The notes under the pieces were generated by a model. It worked only from the letters and a program-made list of their open reading frames with translations. It made no database searches and was not told the DNA's origin. From a virus, in the IMG/VR virus record IMGVR_UViG_3300037189_006220, positions 32,001 to 96,000 of that record: a stretch of DNA of 64,000 bases; one strand, 5' to 3'. The first letter of the stretch is position 1. Every line of letters begins with the position of its first letter. The translations under genes were made by a program, and so were the position numbers. This document shows, in pieces, positions 16,380-32,864 of the stretch.

Positions 16380-16706
16380 CTAGAGGATAACGTGGCTAGA
16401 CAGCAGAGCATCCAGAGCACCTCGCGGTTTAGCTCCGGGAATCCGAGTCACAATCTCGGCATTGTTGATAAGCAACATAGTTGGAATGGAGTTGATGCTG
16501 TATTGCTTTCCAAGTTCTGGTTCTTCGTCAATGTTTACTTTGACAATCTTGAGGTTGTCACCGTATTGGTCAGCAAGAGAATCGAGAATGGGGTTCATCG
16601 CGTTGCACGGACCACACCATTCTGCCCAAAAATCAACCAACACGAATCCGTGGTGGAGGACTACATCTTGCTCAAATGTCTCAGTCGTTGTCTTCACTAC
16701 TGGCAT
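16380..16706 (-). CDS. trxA: thioredoxin
   Basis: VLVDFWAEWCGPC, SIPT. Confidence 0.95.
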   Translation of the reverse strand: MPVVKTTTETFEQDVVLHHGFVLVDFWAEWCGPCNAMNPILDSLADQYGDNLKIVKVNIDEEPELGKQYSINSIPTMLLINNAEIVTRIPGAKPRGALDALLSSHVIL

Positions 16707-16902
16707 TGTCGTCTCCTTCAGTTTCTGGTTCTGCGTCGTCATTTAATTTTACAGGTTCAGAGCCATGCTTAGAAAAGTTGTCGCAAACATTACAGCCACA
16801 GATATATTCTTTGCCAGCCCACTCAAGAACTGGCAAACATTCAGCATGACTGTTGGTGATGCACCAGCCACAGGGTGCTTTCATAAAGACTTTCTCAGCC
16901 AT
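16681..16902 (-). CDS. small Cys-rich protein
   Basis: CGWC...H..C...CGC..C. Confidence 0.55.
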   Translation of the reverse strand: MAEKVFMKAPCGWCITNSHAECLPVLEWAGKEYICGCNVCDNFSKHGSEPVKLNDDAEPETEGDDNASSEDND

Positions 16903-26918: not shown

Positions 26919-27215
26919 ATGAAAACTGCAATGATTGATATTCACAACTTTAAAGCTAAAGTAATCCCTCTTAGCGAAATGCCCGGAGTTCGACTCCTTG
27001 AGATTGCTTCTATGCCTCAGGACGAAAAGCAGTCACTCGCAATGATTCAACTCCTCAAAGATGCACTTATTGACCAGACTCAGACCGCAGAGATTGACAC
27101 CCTTTCGATGACCGTCATCACAGACATCATTGAGGCGTACTTCAATGCCACAGAGACTGAAGAGACTTTTGATATGTCGTTTATCGAAGACGCAGACCCT
27201 AATGCCAAAGAATGA
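26919..27215 (+). CDS. hypothetical protein, paralog of 16918..17262
   Basis: GGAGG SD; shared pattern with the paralog. Confidence 0.65.
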   Translation: MKTAMIDIHNFKAKVIPLSEMPGVRLLEIASMPQDEKQSLAMIQLLKDALIDQTQTAEIDTLSMTVITDIIEAYFNATETEETFDMSFIEDADPNAKE

Positions 27216-27319
27216 GAGACACTCTGAAGAAGACCTTGAGCTTCTCCAAAAAGTTCTCGCTATGCCCAAAGAGGCAATAGAAGATTTACAAAAGCTATTC
27301 GCAATTTGTGAGGAACCAG

Positions 27320-27856
27320 ATGACACGCACGACTTGGGATGAGACGTGGATGGCTGTTGCCGAGACAATGGCTCAACGCTCGCTCTGCACTAATCGTCAG
27401 GTCGGCTGTGTCATTGTGACTTCCAGCAACCGACCAATGGCTGTTGGATATAACGGTCCTCCGGCAAACTTTAATCGAACCACTCACGAAGGGCTACTCT
27501 CTTTTGCTAAATCAGAAGGATGTAACAACTGGTGTGACCGCGCTAAGTCGCAAGACCGAGGAACAACTTACTCCAACTGTGTCAGCGTCCACGCAGAGGC
27601 TAATGCTCTCCTATTTGCAGACCGCAGAGACTACGCAGGTGGCACAATGTATGTCACTAATCCTTGCTGTTGGGACTGCGCCAAGCTCGTAGCCAACTCA
27701 GGCATTAGTCGTCTTGTAGTGCGACTTTCAGAACGAGACGCTCACTACGATAATGAGTCGTCACTATCTTTCATCCGCTCGTGCGGAATACTTGTAGATA
27801 TCTTTCCTCCTAAAGAAAGAGGAGAGATTGGATACTGGGAAGAAGAAGACGCTTAG
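27320..27856 (+). CDS. dCMP deaminase
   Basis: RSLC..RQVGCVI, GYNG, VHAEANAL, PCCWDC. Confidence 0.9.
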   Translation: MTRTTWDETWMAVAETMAQRSLCTNRQVGCVIVTSSNRPMAVGYNGPPANFNRTTHEGLLSFAKSEGCNNWCDRAKSQDRGTTYSNCVSVHAEANALLFADRRDYAGGTMYVTNPCCWDCAKLVANSGISRLVVRLSERDAHYDNESSLSFIRSCGILVDIFPPKERGEIGYWEEEDA

Positions 27857-28146
27857 TCTTTCTTAACCCGAACATCGTATTGCTTACGAGGTGGCGGAGT
27901 ATATCCACGCCTCAGACGACTACGCTCACGAGCGGTTGTTCCTCCCCAGATACCAAGCTCTTCATTCTCCATAGCCCACGCTAGGCACTCAATTACATAT
28001 GGGCATGAGGCACAAATTTTTTTGGCTAGTACAACCATTGTTGTAGAGTCACCAACACCAGTCTCTGGGAAGAACGCATCTGGGTCAGCACTAGCGCAAT
28101 GAGGCTCACCCTTCTCAAAAAAGTCTGGATACTCGGCTTTGCTCAT
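27853..28146 (-). CDS. whiB: WhiB-family transcription factor
   Basis: C...DPDAFFP...AKKICASCP...C...GIWGGT...ER. Confidence 0.95.
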   Translation of the reverse strand: MSKAEYPDFFEKGEPHCASADPDAFFPETGVGDSTTMVVLAKKICASCPYVIECLAWAMENEELGIWGGTTARERSRLRRGYTPPPRKQYDVRVKKD

Positions 28147-28148
28147 AC

Positions 28149-29096
28149 CTATAGCTTAGATGTTGGCTCGACAAAACGCAAAGCTGAAATCACTCTTGTA
28201 ACGTCAATAGTTGCAACCCAAGAAGACAAATCATTTCGTCCGTAGCTGATGACAAACTTGTCTCCGTCTTGTATAAGACCAGAAGCAAACTCAACCCAAC
28301 CCTCGTGAAAAATAAACTTATTAGAAATAGCTTCGATGAGTCCATCTTTATTGTGCTTAACAAATACGTGAGAATAACTCCGTAGGTCTAGCGGTTCGTA
28401 ACTAAATGTTCTTGTATTGAATAGAACTTTCGGTTTCATTACCATATAGTGACCTACTGACAGGTAGCCATCCTCGAAAGGAATAAGCTGTGTTCCGCCC
28501 CGAAGCTTTTCAATTTCTTCAGGGACATCTCCAAGCTTGATAATTTTTTCGTCTTTAAAAATCTTGTTGGCTCCGTAGATATAGTCAAACCCGGGGACCG
28601 ACTCTCCGGCAACTACCCCCCAATTCTTTTCGACTACCTTAGGAGTTTCTGTATCATGCTTTGCAATATATGTAGCCGTACCAGCATCAGGGTCTAGCTC
28701 AAATATACCAACTCGCGCTATCCGAGTATGTTCTTTCTCAAGAATAATCGCAGTAAGTTGCCACTTCCCACCGCGCCAGAACAAACGAGCATCTTCGATG
28801 CCACGCTTAAACGCGAGTTCCCCAATAGTCATAATCTCAATAAGTTTGACTGGCTTATAATTTTCATCAAGCTCAGAGAAGAAGAGTCGGTTAGCTATGT
28901 CATTACCAACAGTAATTGCCTCGTACCTCTGATACTCACCTAGTACATAGTTACTTGAGCGAAAGGTGGCATATAGCTTCCCGTTCGGATGACGAGCAAT
29001 TGAAGGATTAAAAAGTGACCAATGCCTCTTGACCGGCTCTAAGGCCCGGGCAATCATGGACGTAGTGAAGTCACTTGCGTCTATTACATCACTCAT
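28149..29096 (-). CDS. beta-propeller glycoside hydrolase/phosphorylase-like protein (GH130-like)
   Basis: FNPSI, GIEDARLF, EKNW, LRGGT, VEFASGL, ISYG..D. Confidence 0.7.
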   Translation of the reverse strand: MSDVIDASDFTTSMIARALEPVKRHWSLFNPSIARHPNGKLYATFRSSNYVLGEYQRYEAITVGNDIANRLFFSELDENYKPVKLIEIMTIGELAFKRGIEDARLFWRGGKWQLTAIILEKEHTRIARVGIFELDPDAGTATYIAKHDTETPKVVEKNWGVVAGESVPGFDYIYGANKIFKDEKIIKLGDVPEEIEKLRGGTQLIPFEDGYLSVGHYMVMKPKVLFNTRTFSYEPLDLRSYSHVFVKHNKDGLIEAISNKFIFHEGWVEFASGLIQDGDKFVISYGRNDLSSWVATIDVTRVISALRFVEPTSKL

Positions 29097-29125
29097 AGTA
29101 CCTATTCTACCGTTACACTAGAGTC

Positions 29126-29347
29126 ATGGAAGAAAAGCTCACGTCTCTTGACCGTTGCGATAGTTGTGGTGCTCAAGCCTATGTCCGTGTCAACCTCGAA
29201 AGTGGAGAACTACTCTTCTGCGGTCACCACTTTAAAAAGAATGAAGACACGCTTGTTCTTAAAGCCGTAAGTATTGACAGCGAACTAGACAAGCTTTACC
29301 CAGAACCTAAGGCTAAAACTCAGCCAGAACCTCAGGTAGTAGAATAG
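29126..29347 (+). CDS. small actinobacterial Zn-binding protein
   Basis: DRCDSCGAQAY...LLFCGHH. Confidence 0.8.
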   Translation: MEEKLTSLDRCDSCGAQAYVRVNLESGELLFCGHHFKKNEDTLVLKAVSIDSELDKLYPEPKAKTQPEPQVVE

Positions 29348-29683
29348 AAATGTGAAAACGCAAGTTTTCCGACATGAGTAATTTCGCTACCTACTCACAT
29401 AAAATCGCCATCCCCCTCCATCTGGTTGAGTACCACTCCTAGAATATGTGAGGGGGATGGTGTTTTCTTGACAAAAAATATGTCATGTCTTTTTAAGTTA
29501 TTTAACATATTTATTCTCACTAAGCTTAATGAGAATAAGCTGACAATAAATAATTATTATATAAGTTTTAGTGATTGTCTCGGTCTGTTGAGCAGCTCAG
29601 AATTTGCTAAAATAGAAGAACAAACAATCCCCCTCTTGACCAAGAAATTGGTCATTTTTCTTCTGCCCTGAAAGGTCACAAAC

Positions 29684-29767
29684 ATGAATGAATCACAAGA
29701 CACCGTTGGCGGATACTGCATCCCCGTAGACCCGATGGACATGCTTCAGTGCGATTCCTGCCAGTAA
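29684..29767 (+). CDS. 27-aa peptide resembling the RNR alpha C-terminal redox tail
   Basis: MNESQDTVGGYCIPVDPMDMLQCDSCQ*, GAAAGG SD upstream, hairpin plus U-tract downstream. Confidence 0.75.
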   Translation: MNESQDTVGGYCIPVDPMDMLQCDSCQ

Positions 29768-29856
29768 GAATCTAACCCTCGGGTTAACGCCCGGTGCTCC
29801 TCGTAGTAGAGTTGAGTACCGGGCTTCTTTCACCCCTCTAAGACAGCTAGGACATA

Positions 29857-30789
29857 ATGTACGCCCCTGAAACTCTGGTCTTGACATCGTCAGGACACAA
29901 GCCTCTTAGTGAGCTTGATGGACACATGGTGGACGTATGGAATGGCGAAGAGTTTTCGCTAGTCCTAGTTGGACAGGCTGGAAAAGATAAGCCTCTAGTT
30001 ACCGTTGTCTTTGATACCGGAGCAGAGATTACCTGCACTCCAGACCAAACGATGTTTGTCCAGAATGGATACTTCGACCACACAATTTCTCGTAAGCGAG
30101 TTGCAGAAGCACTGCCCGGAGAAAAGATTGTTAAGTCCGAGTTCCCACTCTTAGAGCACGGCACTGAGCTAATTCCTAATGCTTACACCCACGGCTTCTA
30201 CACAGGAGCAGAACGGTTTAAGCGTCGCCCCGGAGTTGTATCAAGACTCGCTATCTATGGTGGTCGCAGACCATGTCTAGATGAGCTTGACCTAGACCCT
30301 CGGACAGATAAGACTAACCTCTACTTCACTACAGAAATGCTTGGAGACTTCGAGGTTCCACTCAGCACTAAGTACTCACTAGAGTCCAAGCTTGAGTGGC
30401 TAGCTGGACTTTTTGATAGTGGTCTTATTAAAAGAAAAATTGGTTCACAACCAATGTGGCATCTCTACTCAAACAACTTTCAGTTTCTTAAAGACATGAA
30501 ACTTTTCATGCAGACTTTGGGAAGCGATGTTCGAGTAGTAAAAAACGAAGATATGAACCGTCTTGAATACACACTACGGTTCTCTGGAAGACCGATGCAG
30601 AACTTACGAAAGCTCGGAGTCCCAGCAAAGTATATCACCATCCCTGAAGTATCTTACAAACGACGTGGAGTTGGTTATCCACGAATTGTGAGCATCATCG
30701 ACAACAACCGCCGTGACACGGTTTACACGCTCATGGAAAAGAAAACTCACCGAGCAGTGTTCAACGGCATCTTAAACGCAACCCAATAA
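29857..30789 (+). CDS. free-standing degenerate RIR1-type intein (Hint plus LAGLIDADG remnant)
   Basis: YAPETLVLT..G...VWNGEEFS...CTP N-terminal blocks; LEWLAGLFDSG; DTVY...H..VFNGIL..Q C-terminal block; TAG two codons upstream and TAA right after Q. Confidence 0.75.
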   Translation: MYAPETLVLTSSGHKPLSELDGHMVDVWNGEEFSLVLVGQAGKDKPLVTVVFDTGAEITCTPDQTMFVQNGYFDHTISRKRVAEALPGEKIVKSEFPLLEHGTELIPNAYTHGFYTGAERFKRRPGVVSRLAIYGGRRPCLDELDLDPRTDKTNLYFTTEMLGDFEVPLSTKYSLESKLEWLAGLFDSGLIKRKIGSQPMWHLYSNNFQFLKDMKLFMQTLGSDVRVVKNEDMNRLEYTLRFSGRPMQNLRKLGVPAKYITIPEVSYKRRGVGYPRIVSIIDNNRRDTVYTLMEKKTHRAVFNGILNATQ

Positions 30790-30808
30790 CTAACAAGGAG
30801 AAACAACA

Positions 30809-31798
30809 ATGGCAATTCTAGGAACCGGCATCCAAGAGGGACTCCTCCTGAAGCCAGTCAAATATCAGTGGGCAATGGACTTGTACGACCAAGCAGTTGC
30901 CAATACTTGGTTCCCCAACGAAATCCAACTAGGCGAAGACATCGCTGACTTCAAAAAGATGTCTGAGGATGAGCAACACGCTATTACGTTCTTGATGTCA
31001 TTCTTTAACCCATCAGAGCTTATTGTGAATAAGGCTCTTGCCTTCGGTGTCTACCCTTACCTAAATGCACCCGAGTGCCACCTCTACCTTGCTAAGCAGA
31101 TGTGGGAAGAAGCAAACCACTGCATGTCGTTCGAGTACGTCCTTGAGACGTTCCCTGTAGACCGTAAGAAAATTTATGAACAGCATGTTGCTGTAGACAG
31201 CATCAAAGCCAAGGAAGACTTCGAGGTCAAGTTCATTAAGCGCATGACCGAAGATACCATTGACATCAACACCGTAGAGGGAAAGCAGGACTTCGTCCGC
31301 AACCTCGTGGCTTACTCGGTCATCATGGAGGGTATCTGGTTCTACTCGGGCTTCATGGTGGCTCTGAGCTTCCGTCAGCGCAACCTACTTCGTAACTTTG
31401 CCTCACTGGTGGACTGGATTGTCCGTGACGAGAGCCTTCACCTCAAGTTTGGTATCAACCTCATTCTTGAGGTACTCAACGAGAATCCTGAAATTGTCAC
31501 AGACGAGTTCGCAGCCGAGATTCAGCAGATGATTTTTGATGCTGTTGACATGGAGATTACCTACAACAAGGAGCAGTTCCCCAACGGTATCCTTGGACTC
31601 AACGCTGACTATGTTAGCCAATACACCAAGTACCTCGCTGACCGCCGTCTTGAGGAGCTTGGATTCCCCCCACACTACAACGTGGGTAACCCTGCTAAGT
31701 GGATGGCTGCGGCTAATGATACTCTTCAGCTTGTGAACTTCTTTGAGTCCACCAACACAAGCTATGAATCAAACGCATCAGCTGCTACTGGTAAGTAG
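30809..31798 (+). CDS. nrdB: ribonucleotide reductase class I beta subunit (class Ic signature)
   Basis: W.P.EI, EEANH, MEGIWFYSGF, RDESLH, NFFE...Y. Confidence 0.95.
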   Translation: MAILGTGIQEGLLLKPVKYQWAMDLYDQAVANTWFPNEIQLGEDIADFKKMSEDEQHAITFLMSFFNPSELIVNKALAFGVYPYLNAPECHLYLAKQMWEEANHCMSFEYVLETFPVDRKKIYEQHVAVDSIKAKEDFEVKFIKRMTEDTIDINTVEGKQDFVRNLVAYSVIMEGIWFYSGFMVALSFRQRNLLRNFASLVDWIVRDESLHLKFGINLILEVLNENPEIVTDEFAAEIQQMIFDAVDMEITYNKEQFPNGILGLNADYVSQYTKYLADRRLEELGFPPHYNVGNPAKWMAAANDTLQLVNFFESTNTSYESNASAATGK

Positions 31799-31880
31799 TA
31801 AGTGATAGGCTCTTTAAAGAGTCAGTTGCTTTACCAATAAGAAAGCCCCCACCAATCGGTAGGGGCTTTTCTTATGCTTG

Positions 31881-32864
31881 CTACTTAGTCTGCGTAATCC
31901 GCACAACTTCGTAGTCTGGATACCAGATGGGGTGAAGACCAATAGTCTTACCGTCATTAGGAGAGTCGAGCATAAGCCCGTTTCCAGCCCAGAACCCAAT
32001 GTGACCCGGCATATAGACAAGGTCACCTAGACGAGCCTCTGAGCGAGGGATAACCCTATTTTGGTCACGCTGAACTCGCGCACCATGATAGAGGTCAATC
32101 CCAAACTTAGAGTACACATACTTAGTGAATCCAGAGCAATCGAACCCATAAGCAACATACTTTGTTGAGCGGTAAGGCACTCCCTGATATTTCATTGCTT
32201 CATCAAACACTGGAGAGACTCCAACCTTAGGCATAGCAAATACACCAGCATATGTATCTATAACCACATCAACTGTATCTCTATGCCAAGCACGAGGATT
32301 ACCGCTAGTAACTACGATTTGCCCCGGCTCATATGTATCTGCCCATGCGCTCTGATGACTTGATACAACAAGTCCCAAACCAATAAGCAACGCAGATACA
32401 CCAGTTACAGCCCATGTACGGCTACGAAAACGGCTTAGAAATGCTACCGGAACTGTTCCCGGAGAGTCACTGCTAATGCTCTCAGAAGCCGTCTCAGGGC
32501 TGATTAAGTCCTGTTCTACAGCTTCTTTTACTCTCTCAATGACAGTCTGCCCAATTGCATGAGTAATGGTTCCAGAATCAAATTCACTGAAAACACTCTC
32601 AACTGCTTGAACAGCATCTGAGACAATACTATCGGCTACCTCTTTGGTAACCTCTTCCATTGTTCCAATTCCAACAACGGACTTTAGACAGTCGGACTGC
32701 CATCTTGCTAGTCCAACACCAGAAGCATCAGCCCCGACTACTTTTTCGTAGTCCTTACGTGCCCTGTCTAGCACGTAACTGGTTCTGTCAGAAACAGCTT
32801 CGCTGGAGTTAAATCTCCATTTAGTTCGTAGCTGTTCGAGTTCGGATTTTTGTTTCTTATTCAC
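31881..32864 (-). CDS. membrane-anchored NlpC/P60 peptidase
   Basis: GVPY...FDCSGFT...GDLV..GHIG; TM segment. Confidence 0.85.
   Translation of the reverse strand: MNKKQKSELEQLRTKWRFNSSEAVSDRTSYVLDRARKDYEKVVGADASGVGLARWQSDCLKSVVGIGTMEEVTKEVADSIVSDAVQAVESVFSEFDSGTITHAIGQTVIERVKEAVEQDLISPETASESISSDSPGTVPVAFLSRFRSRTWAVTGVSALLIGLGLVVSSHQSAWADTYEPGQIVVTSGNPRAWHRDTVDVVIDTYAGVFAMPKVGVSPVFDEAMKYQGVPYRSTKYVAYGFDCSGFTKYVYSKFGIDLYHGARVQRDQNRVIPRSEARLGDLVYMPGHIGFWAGNGLMLDSPNDGKTIGLHPIWYPDYEVVRITQTK

Follow-up and report, generated by a model that had tools for sequence, protein, structure and literature searches.

A 27-amino-acid phage peptide resembling a free-standing C-terminal redox tail of class Ia ribonucleotide reductase

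In class I ribonucleotide reductase (RNR), a disordered C-terminal double-Cys motif re-reduces the oxidized active site and is itself re-reduced by thioredoxin or glutaredoxin (PMC9669993, 10.1101/2022.04.23.489257, PMC6382339). This Cys tail has been treated as a built-in part of the alpha subunit (PMC9669993). Here, we describe a gene for a micropeptide of 27 amino acids (aa) in a 64,000-nucleotide (nt) stretch of viral DNA (hereafter the window), which corresponds to bases 32001-96000 of the 120.5-kb virus record IMGVR_UViG_3300037189_006220, a record with direct terminal repeats (DTRs). Comparison with bacterial and viral homologs indicates that its product is very probably a free-standing form of the C-terminal redox tail of NrdA, the class Ia alpha subunit.

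Several described systems share part of this arrangement. The sequence of the peptide is that of the final ∼15 residues of full-length NrdA from the same clade. With the class I RNR alpha tail (NrdA; CX2C in eukaryotic R1) it shares the Cys pair at the very end, and it is linked to nrdA, nrdB and NrdR boxes. Unlike that tail, it is encoded by a separate gene with its own ribosome-binding site, which is present in two copies per bacterial genome and occurs alone in many phages. In the split class II RNR of Pseudomonas aeruginosa, a catalytic part (NrdJa) and a part with the C-terminal Cys (NrdJb) are likewise separate polypeptides, and NrdJb 'mediates efficient reductive dithiol exchange' for NrdJa (PMC4520616). 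However, that enzyme is B12-dependent and NrdJb is a folded, domain-sized protein, whereas the present system is class Ia and involves a 20-40-aa peptide with no folded domain; the likeness is functional only. A phage RNR large-subunit gene divided into separately translated parts is also represented by the fragmented nrdA of an Aeromonas phage (NrdA-a/NrdA-b), but there the split lies inside the catalytic body and is due to a mobile endonuclease gene (PMC3045599). In our case only the terminal tail is separate, and the arrangement is ancient and widespread in cellular genomes. Finally, thioredoxin, glutaredoxin and NrdH, the small redoxins of RNR, resemble the peptide in their CxxC dithiol chemistry, which lies on the route of electrons to RNR. 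The peptide differs from these redoxins in having no thioredoxin fold (such a fold takes ∼75 aa or more with an internal CxxC, and the 27-aa product gave no PF00085 or PF00462 match) and would stand one step further down the chain, as a redoxin substrate. Parts of this path have been reshuffled between subunits elsewhere, for example in Facklamia ignava, in which a glutaredoxin is fused to NrdB (PMC6187632). No literature description of a separately encoded class I RNR tail was found, either by literature searches or in passages of two surveys of RNR C-termini, with supplements and subscription journals outside the search; searches with the motif strings of the family returned no relevant paper. 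Thus, the tail chemistry and the split-RNR idea are known, and what appears to be new is the class Ia micropeptide tail, its duplication with an NrdR-linked copy, and its spread through phages.

The gene and its ribosome-binding site are located as follows:

29684-29767 (stop codon included), plus strand: 27-aa micropeptide gene, taken from the list of open reading frames (ORFs) and supported by the family and by fused NrdA tails
29670-29675, plus strand: Shine-Dalgarno-like GAAAGG, 8 nt before the ATG, read directly from the sequence

The ATG-initiated ORF of 27 codons encodes MNESQDTVGGYCIPVDPMDMLQCDSCQ. A longer form is excluded because an in-frame stop at 29669-29671 makes the ATG at 29684 the earliest possible start. 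The Shine-Dalgarno sequence, to which an earlier note on this DNA had drawn attention, is present, and the homologs have clear ones (AGGAGG, GGGAGG) at the same distance. On length alone the ORF is not above chance, as 79 ORFs of at least 20 aa overlap positions 27000-32500; it is taken as real because it is conserved elsewhere. When the window ORF was compared with its three closest relatives, the ORF was conserved with changes mostly at third positions and the flanks were not conserved. Across 223 distinct DNA sequences of the family, several codons are used at each position and the ratio of non-synonymous to synonymous differences (pN/pS) is 0.44, at a saturated pS of 0.71. Judged by this amino-acid conservation among homologs, the window ORF is a real gene under protein-level selection, and the proposal of the earlier note that it is a selected gene and not debris holds.

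No family for the peptide exists in Pfam, NCBIfam or PHROGs (one zinc-finger Pfam match, E 0.26, was at chance level), the exact 27-aa sequence is absent from a collection of 15 billion proteins, and Megablast of positions 29100-30900 against GenBank phages gave no match. A tblastn search of the peptide against phages yielded six weak matches (E 0.05 to 8), none of them significant alone, which were leads later confirmed by the family search. One of the six was to a Pseudanabaena phage. In Pontimonas phage phiPsal1 and in the Clavibacter phages CMP1 and CN1A, the matches fell into spacers with no annotated gene, each within an ORF of 22-33 aa ending in DPMD-x3-CxxCQ that is unannotated in GenBank.

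To characterize the family, we scanned IMG/VR contigs and species-representative bacterial genomes for the DNA pattern encoding DPMD-x3-C-x2-CQ-stop. Each of the two sets gave at least 120 loci. If all bases were equally frequent, chance would produce the pattern once per ∼5.5e11 positions, or ∼2 times in the genome set of 596 billion bases. The bacterial matches listed came nearly all from Microbacteriaceae (Leifsonia, Clavibacter, Salinibacterium, Pontimonas and others), with a few from Saccharibacteria and Nanopelagicales. A true stop terminates all 240 listed matches, and the stop-to-stop frame is no longer than 70 codons at 98 of the 120 listed viral and 67 of the 120 listed bacterial loci; where frames are long, in high-GC genomes, they seem to result from out-of-frame read-through. 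The family comprises peptides of 20-43 aa ending in ...Y-x-V-P-x-DPMD-x-L-Q-C-x-S-C-Q-stop, and its bacterial copies have textbook ribosome-binding sites. Residues left free by the pattern are conserved in the 223 distinct DNA sequences (Y in 186, V in 191, P in 220, L in 207, Q in 184, D/E in 222 and S in 201). An alignment of 141 peptides (A1) was used for a profile search among 1.84 billion proteins, which gave 469 cluster representatives at E<=1e-3; the best 150 of these were 24-151 aa long and nearly all matched at their C-terminal end.

Both cysteines of the CxxC (C26 and C29 in A1 numbering) are invariant in the 141 sequences, although the search pattern demanded both. The position of C12 of the window peptide is occupied by Cys in just 1 of the 201 distinct peptides compared, and 10 of them have any Cys beyond the pair. 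Of the three cysteines that the earlier note required to be conserved, the CxxC pair therefore stands, with the reservation that it was required by the pattern, and C12 does not; as far as the alignments go, the family has two conserved cysteines, not three. One member (P0025, 27 aa, from Homoserinibacter sp., GenBank TXK20019.1) is named 'ribonucleotide-diphosphate reductase subunit beta' by NCBI, a misnomer reflecting the position of the gene. The remaining family members that were looked up are called 'hypothetical protein' or are unnamed.

The identity of the peptide is based on its fused counterparts. Full-length class Ia NrdA proteins carrying the motif as their last stretch occur in Saccharibacteria and other bacteria of the candidate phyla radiation (CPR). 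In the fused Saccharibacteria proteins L136 (854 aa), L206 (891 aa) and L214, ...DPMD-x-LLCE[SG]CQ forms the last residues. A protein-database search with the L206 tail region returned 443 full-length NrdA matches; this search takes its words from the tail, so that the number shows fusion to be common but not how frequent it is. Among the best 120 of the 443, 41 end in DPMD-x3-CxxCQ, 72 in D-x-x-[DE]-x3-CxxC (for example, ...VVHGPVDPQDALLCEGCQ) and 7 in another CxxC, and none is without one. The region following the YYLH motif contains no Cys in 30 of 30 NrdA proteins adjoining a separate peptide gene, versus two in 3 of 3 fused forms. The tail-less proteins end in an Ala/Pro-rich linker and ...RRGFGG..., and the split and fused forms are ∼60% identical over their full length. 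The reading frame of the partner NrdA ends 26-110 nt 5' of the DPMD codons. As regards membership of the class I RNR alpha tail, homology and the terminal Cys pair were both found, whereas the peptide is not a covalent part of alpha. Because it has a separate ORF with its own Shine-Dalgarno sequence and start, and because the partner NrdA has no Cys, we regard it as a free-standing variant and not as a strict member of the tail class.

Some further features of these NrdA proteins were observed. Both tail-less and fused NrdA of the clade (L138-L247, P0156-P0275) have one or two [KR][KR]GFG(F)GG-like linker motifs after the barrel (...PARRGFGGL...), which could serve as a hinge or in docking of the tail. 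Saccharibacteria hold both forms, the fused L136, L206 and L214 and the split L139, in which a 72-codon frame follows a tail-less NrdA. Their NrdA and NrdB are 60-75% identical to Microbacteriaceae proteins, a similarity that hints at gene transfer between Saccharibacteria epibionts and actinobacteria.

Genomic context in bacteria was analyzed by ORF clustering and a Pfam scan, followed by a recount with tblastn; 4 of the 240 loci, which had no picked start, were left out. Many bacterial copies have a class Ia nrdA (ATP-cone, all-alpha domain and barrel) immediately 5' and nrdB immediately 3'. RNR genes lie beside the peptide gene at 49 of the 120 listed bacterial loci, and 47 of these 49 have the order nrdA-peptide-nrdB on one strand, Clavibacter tessellarius being among them. 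Five genomes with an RNR-distant copy were tested for the RNR large subunit (PF02867). Each of the four that gave a match had just one, to a tail-less NrdA whose gene is followed by another peptide gene; no PF02867 match was obtained in the remaining one, a metagenome-assembled genome of 0.9 Mb. Because the only PF02867 match was tail-less in all four matching genomes, these bacteria seem to depend on a tail-less NrdA and to encode its tail twice as a micropeptide.

The RNR-distant chromosomal copies mostly have the form ...VGGY-x-VP..., which is nearest to the window peptide. No consistent redox-gene partner of this copy was found: its neighbors are often genes for MaoC-like dehydratases and MurB, besides a kinase-like protein and others, and tRNA genes lie beside it at 1 of 6 loci. 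A regulatory link to RNR was found in the upstream DNA. Six positions of the NrdR box are highly conserved (C4, A6, A8, T9, T11 and G13), and the two boxes of a pair are separated by a linker of 15-16 bp (PMC13584703). A 16-mer matching all six positions is present within 200 nt 5' of the start in 54 of the 68 listed RNR-distant copies, compared with 2 of 68 for shuffled sequences, and a second box matching at least five of the six positions lies 31-33 nt off in 29 of these loci. As expected, operon-internal copies have no NrdR boxes (0 of 48). In bacteria, membership of the nrd operon or regulon was therefore found for the 47 operon loci and the 54 of 68 copies with NrdR-box-like sites. The phage copies have such sites in 2 of 114 cases, a number equal to that for shuffled sequences, and no NrdR box was found at the window ORF. 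A conserved element lies ∼90-170 nt 5' of the second bacterial copy (for example, in L131, L191 and L222) and combines an NrdR-box-like palindrome with a further palindrome, AATGACA-n4-TGTCATT, and a TATATAGTG box.

On the basis of these comparisons, we propose that in Microbacteriaceae and some relatives, in which NrdA ends without Cys, its tail is made as a separate peptide of 20-40 aa. The CxxC of the peptide would reduce the active site of the tail-less NrdA in trans, and thioredoxin would then re-reduce the peptide. A redox tail acting in trans as a dithiol shuttle appears likely to us, although with less assurance than the identity of the peptide itself. The earlier note had suggested either a diffusible dithiol shuttle or a decoy for host thioredoxin/NrdH; the RNR-linked shuttle gains partial support from the NrdA-tail homology, the nrdA-peptide-nrdB loci and the NrdR-box-like sites, whereas nothing specific was found for the decoy. 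We also predicted the complex of a cognate pair, namely residues 95-835 of L155 NrdA and its 32-aa peptide. The prediction score was 0.53, against 0.00 for the best of three controls; of 80 solved complexes 58 pass the mark used, as do 2 of 110 mismatched pairs. This lends weak support to the pairing.

If this proposal is true, tail docking and electron transfer, which are hard to study with tethered disordered tails, would become open to study with a synthetic peptide and a tail-less enzyme, and the apparently Cys-tail-less NrdA that is the only RNR of these bacteria would be explained. A component of an essential pathway is missed by gene callers owing to its small size. In addition, a gene for 20-40 aa would join the auxiliary genes of nucleotide metabolism.

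In the window, the peptide gene lies 1 kb upstream of nrdB, and its neighbors comprise genes for dCMP deaminase, WhiB, a DUF7455 protein, a 310-aa intein-like protein, NrdB and an NlpC/P60 protein, a set that points to an actinobacterial phage. The features relevant to RNR and its surroundings are:

16380-16742, minus strand: phage thioredoxin (PF00085, 100 bits)
27308-27856: dCMP deaminase
29126-29347: DUF7455 gene (Pfam)
29857-30789, plus strand: free-standing intein-like ORF of 310 aa (weak PF14890 match; identities to inteins)
30809-31798, plus strand: nrdB, class I RNR small subunit (PF00268, E 5e-76)

Thioredoxin, dCMP deaminase, the peptide and NrdB together make up a nucleotide-supply set with no alpha subunit. 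The window NrdB is 65-83% identical (median 79%) to 44 bacterial operon NrdB proteins, and 77-83% identical to the 41 non-CPR ones from nrdA-peptide-nrdB operons (at least 250 aligned residues in both comparisons). It is the C-terminal stretch of class I RNR beta that docks on alpha, and the C-terminal ...LQLVNFFESTNTSYESNASA... stretch of the window NrdB is common to the host-operon proteins. The phage thioredoxin is likely to be the reductant of the peptide's disulfide, and no glutaredoxin is encoded in the whole record. No PF02867 candidate was found in the record of the window or in G006, the record that holds L076; these are the two DTR-bounded records, with CheckV completeness of 71% and 68%, respectively. 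It is thus likely that nrdA is absent from both phages. We considered whether the peptide locus reflects a group I intron or is the last exon of an interrupted nrdA, and rejected both, given that no nrdA was found in the record and that the ORF begins with a start codon of its own.

Among the 120 listed viral loci, only three (L061, L057 and L076) have nrdA or nrdB beside the peptide gene, and their NrdB proteins are 87-91% identical to that of the window. In L061 the order is peptide, nrdA (1120 aa, tail-less and intein-bearing) and nrdB. L057 has the same order as the window, with the peptide followed by a 316-aa intein-like ORF and nrdB, and in L076 nrdB follows the peptide gene after 75 nt. 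The intein-like ORF of the window, which has an in-frame stop immediately upstream, stands where L061 has its intein-bearing nrdA. It shows 39% identity to residues 450-756 of the L061 NrdA, 42% to the free ORF of L057, and 28-30% to inteins within RNR genes of two further contigs. From these comparisons, the nrdA exteins were apparently lost in the phage lineage, with the peptide and nrdB remaining; the intein seems to have survived them and to be retained as an ORF.

Since the phage has the peptide, nrdB and thioredoxin but no nrdA, it probably serves the tail-less NrdA of its host, a reading towards which we lean only modestly. Phage thioredoxin, peptide and NrdB would jointly drive the host NrdA, and by supplying three of the four parts the phage would raise the output of deoxynucleoside triphosphates (dNTPs). 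If so, the window would represent a documented case of a phage that retains beta, tail and thioredoxin but depends on the alpha of its host. Translation in the phage, binding to NrdA, electron transfer and the benefit to the phage are the steps that we infer. More tentatively, and with the balance of our judgment somewhat against it as a whole, the class Ia RNR of Microbacteriaceae might run on a diffusible, NrdR-regulated and flux-limiting dithiol co-substrate of ∼25 aa, which many phages carry alone, as what may be the smallest auxiliary metabolic gene known, to speed up the host enzyme, this lineage having dropped nrdA and retained the peptide, nrdB and thioredoxin to form a chimeric host-phage RNR.

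Several observations speak against a free tail serving RNR. A free peptide of 27 aa loses the high local concentration of a tethered tail. In the complex prediction, scores of 0.60 or below were reached by just 7 of the 80 solved complexes and by both passing mismatches; the prediction runs agreed in at least 66% of contacts, the partner had a predicted local distance difference test value (pLDDT) of at least 51, and no contacts were returned. The offset of the second NrdR-like box is 33 nt in 24 of the 29 loci, corresponding to a 17-bp linker instead of the 15-16 bp in the literature. Since the pattern scans, like the tail-region word search, pick out sequences that have the motif, their counts are not estimates of prevalence. 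The phage contexts also mostly lie away from RNR: the peptide gene is placed between those for the large terminase and the portal at 34 of the 120 listed phage loci and is in the vicinity of an M23 peptidase or lysis gene at 39, as compared with the three loci beside nrdA or nrdB, and many of the terminase-portal or M23/holin contigs have no RNR gene in the stretch fetched. One reading of the RNR-distant phage copies is that the peptide alone is worth carrying, as it limits the turnover of the host RNR; the other is that it has a further role beyond RNR.

As one alternative, the family might consist of small peptides of a general thiol or metal-binding kind that serve several partners, with RNR as one client or with the NrdA fusion being secondary, and phages might use them for morphogenesis or lysis. 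The terminase-portal and M23/holin contexts fit this explanation, as do the cultured phages phiPsal1 and CMP1, in which the peptide gene comes right after the holin gene. On the other hand, all informative bacterial contexts lead to RNR (the operon, the NrdR-box-like sites, fusion to NrdA only and the loss of Cys from the partner), two Cys per peptide cannot alone form a Cys4 metal site, and no Pfam, NCBIfam or PHROG family is available for it, so that we consider a general peptide unlikely. It could also be argued that the phage peptide is a decoy or inhibitor that blocks host NrdA or soaks up thioredoxin/NrdH, given that most phage copies lie away from RNR genes and that phage peptides differ somewhat from operon-type host peptides (xGY-x-VP versus EY-x-VP). 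However, the phage copies keep the host residues including the CxxC (required by the pattern), the window phage also has nrdB, thioredoxin and dCMP deaminase as a dNTP-supply set, and the related L061 pairs the peptide with its own tail-less nrdA. Blocking dNTP synthesis would also be of no obvious gain to a lytic 120-kb phage, and a decoy is in our opinion improbable.

The remaining two explanations give the peptide product no function, and one of them involves the hairpins around the gene:

29406-29462, plus strand: large hairpin followed by UUUUCUU, ending the upstream DUF7455 gene (dG -34.2, z -6.3)
29637-29654, plus strand: 7-bp hairpin with a GAAA loop and then a T-run, terminator- or attenuator-like, just 5' of the ORF
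29789-29824, plus strand: strong hairpin with a weak U-tract, likely a terminator or an RNA-stabilizing end

The upstream hairpin TGACCAA-GAAA-TTGGTCA, which the earlier note had described, is indeed present with 7 pairs (dG -8.9 kcal/mol, z -2.8; an equally stable fold in 3 of 200 shuffles); TTTTTCTTCT comes after it, and a consensus scan flagged the hairpin as terminator-like. The note had also claimed a downstream hairpin with a U-tract, of which the hairpin proved strong (dG -25.9, z -5.3, 0 of 200 shuffles), but the U-tract is no more than CUUCUUUC, and the consensus scan did not call this hairpin a terminator. A GC stem similar to this downstream hairpin is seen in L057. Terminator-like hairpins on both sides of the ORF, together with the Cys codons within it, could suggest that the ORF regulates the nrdB region downstream as a leader peptide or attenuator, in which case the hairpins would matter and the product would not. 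Against this, conservation is at the amino-acid level with synonymous change and does not extend to the flanks, the fused forms carry the same sequence within a protein, and the genomic contexts are unrelated to each other; a leader is thus highly unlikely. That the ORF is non-functional debris from the loss of nrdA would agree with the lack of nrdA in the phage and with the intein-only ORF at the place of the L061 nrdA. Yet the peptide gene of L061 precedes an intact tail-less nrdA and is therefore no 3' remnant, the window gene has its own Shine-Dalgarno sequence and start, and the gene is kept under selection at more than 100 phage loci besides L057 and L076, which makes debris the hardest of all to credit.

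As for expression, the DUF7455 gene ends in the hairpin at 29406-29462, and therefore the peptide ORF is not simply its read-through. The idea of a separate expression unit, put forward in the earlier note, is supported with regard to a dedicated start. As to a dedicated promoter, a consensus scan found no sigma-70-like one upstream of the ORF on the plus strand, its sole plus-strand match being at 29829-29858, downstream. An Rfam search of 29300-29900 gave merely sub-threshold matches to plastid 3' untranslated regions on the small hairpin, which were dismissed. The AT-rich spacer 5' of the peptide gene also contains, at 29514-29535, a near-perfect inverted repeat of 22 nt (10 of 11 pairs) centered on AAGCTT, which may be an operator.

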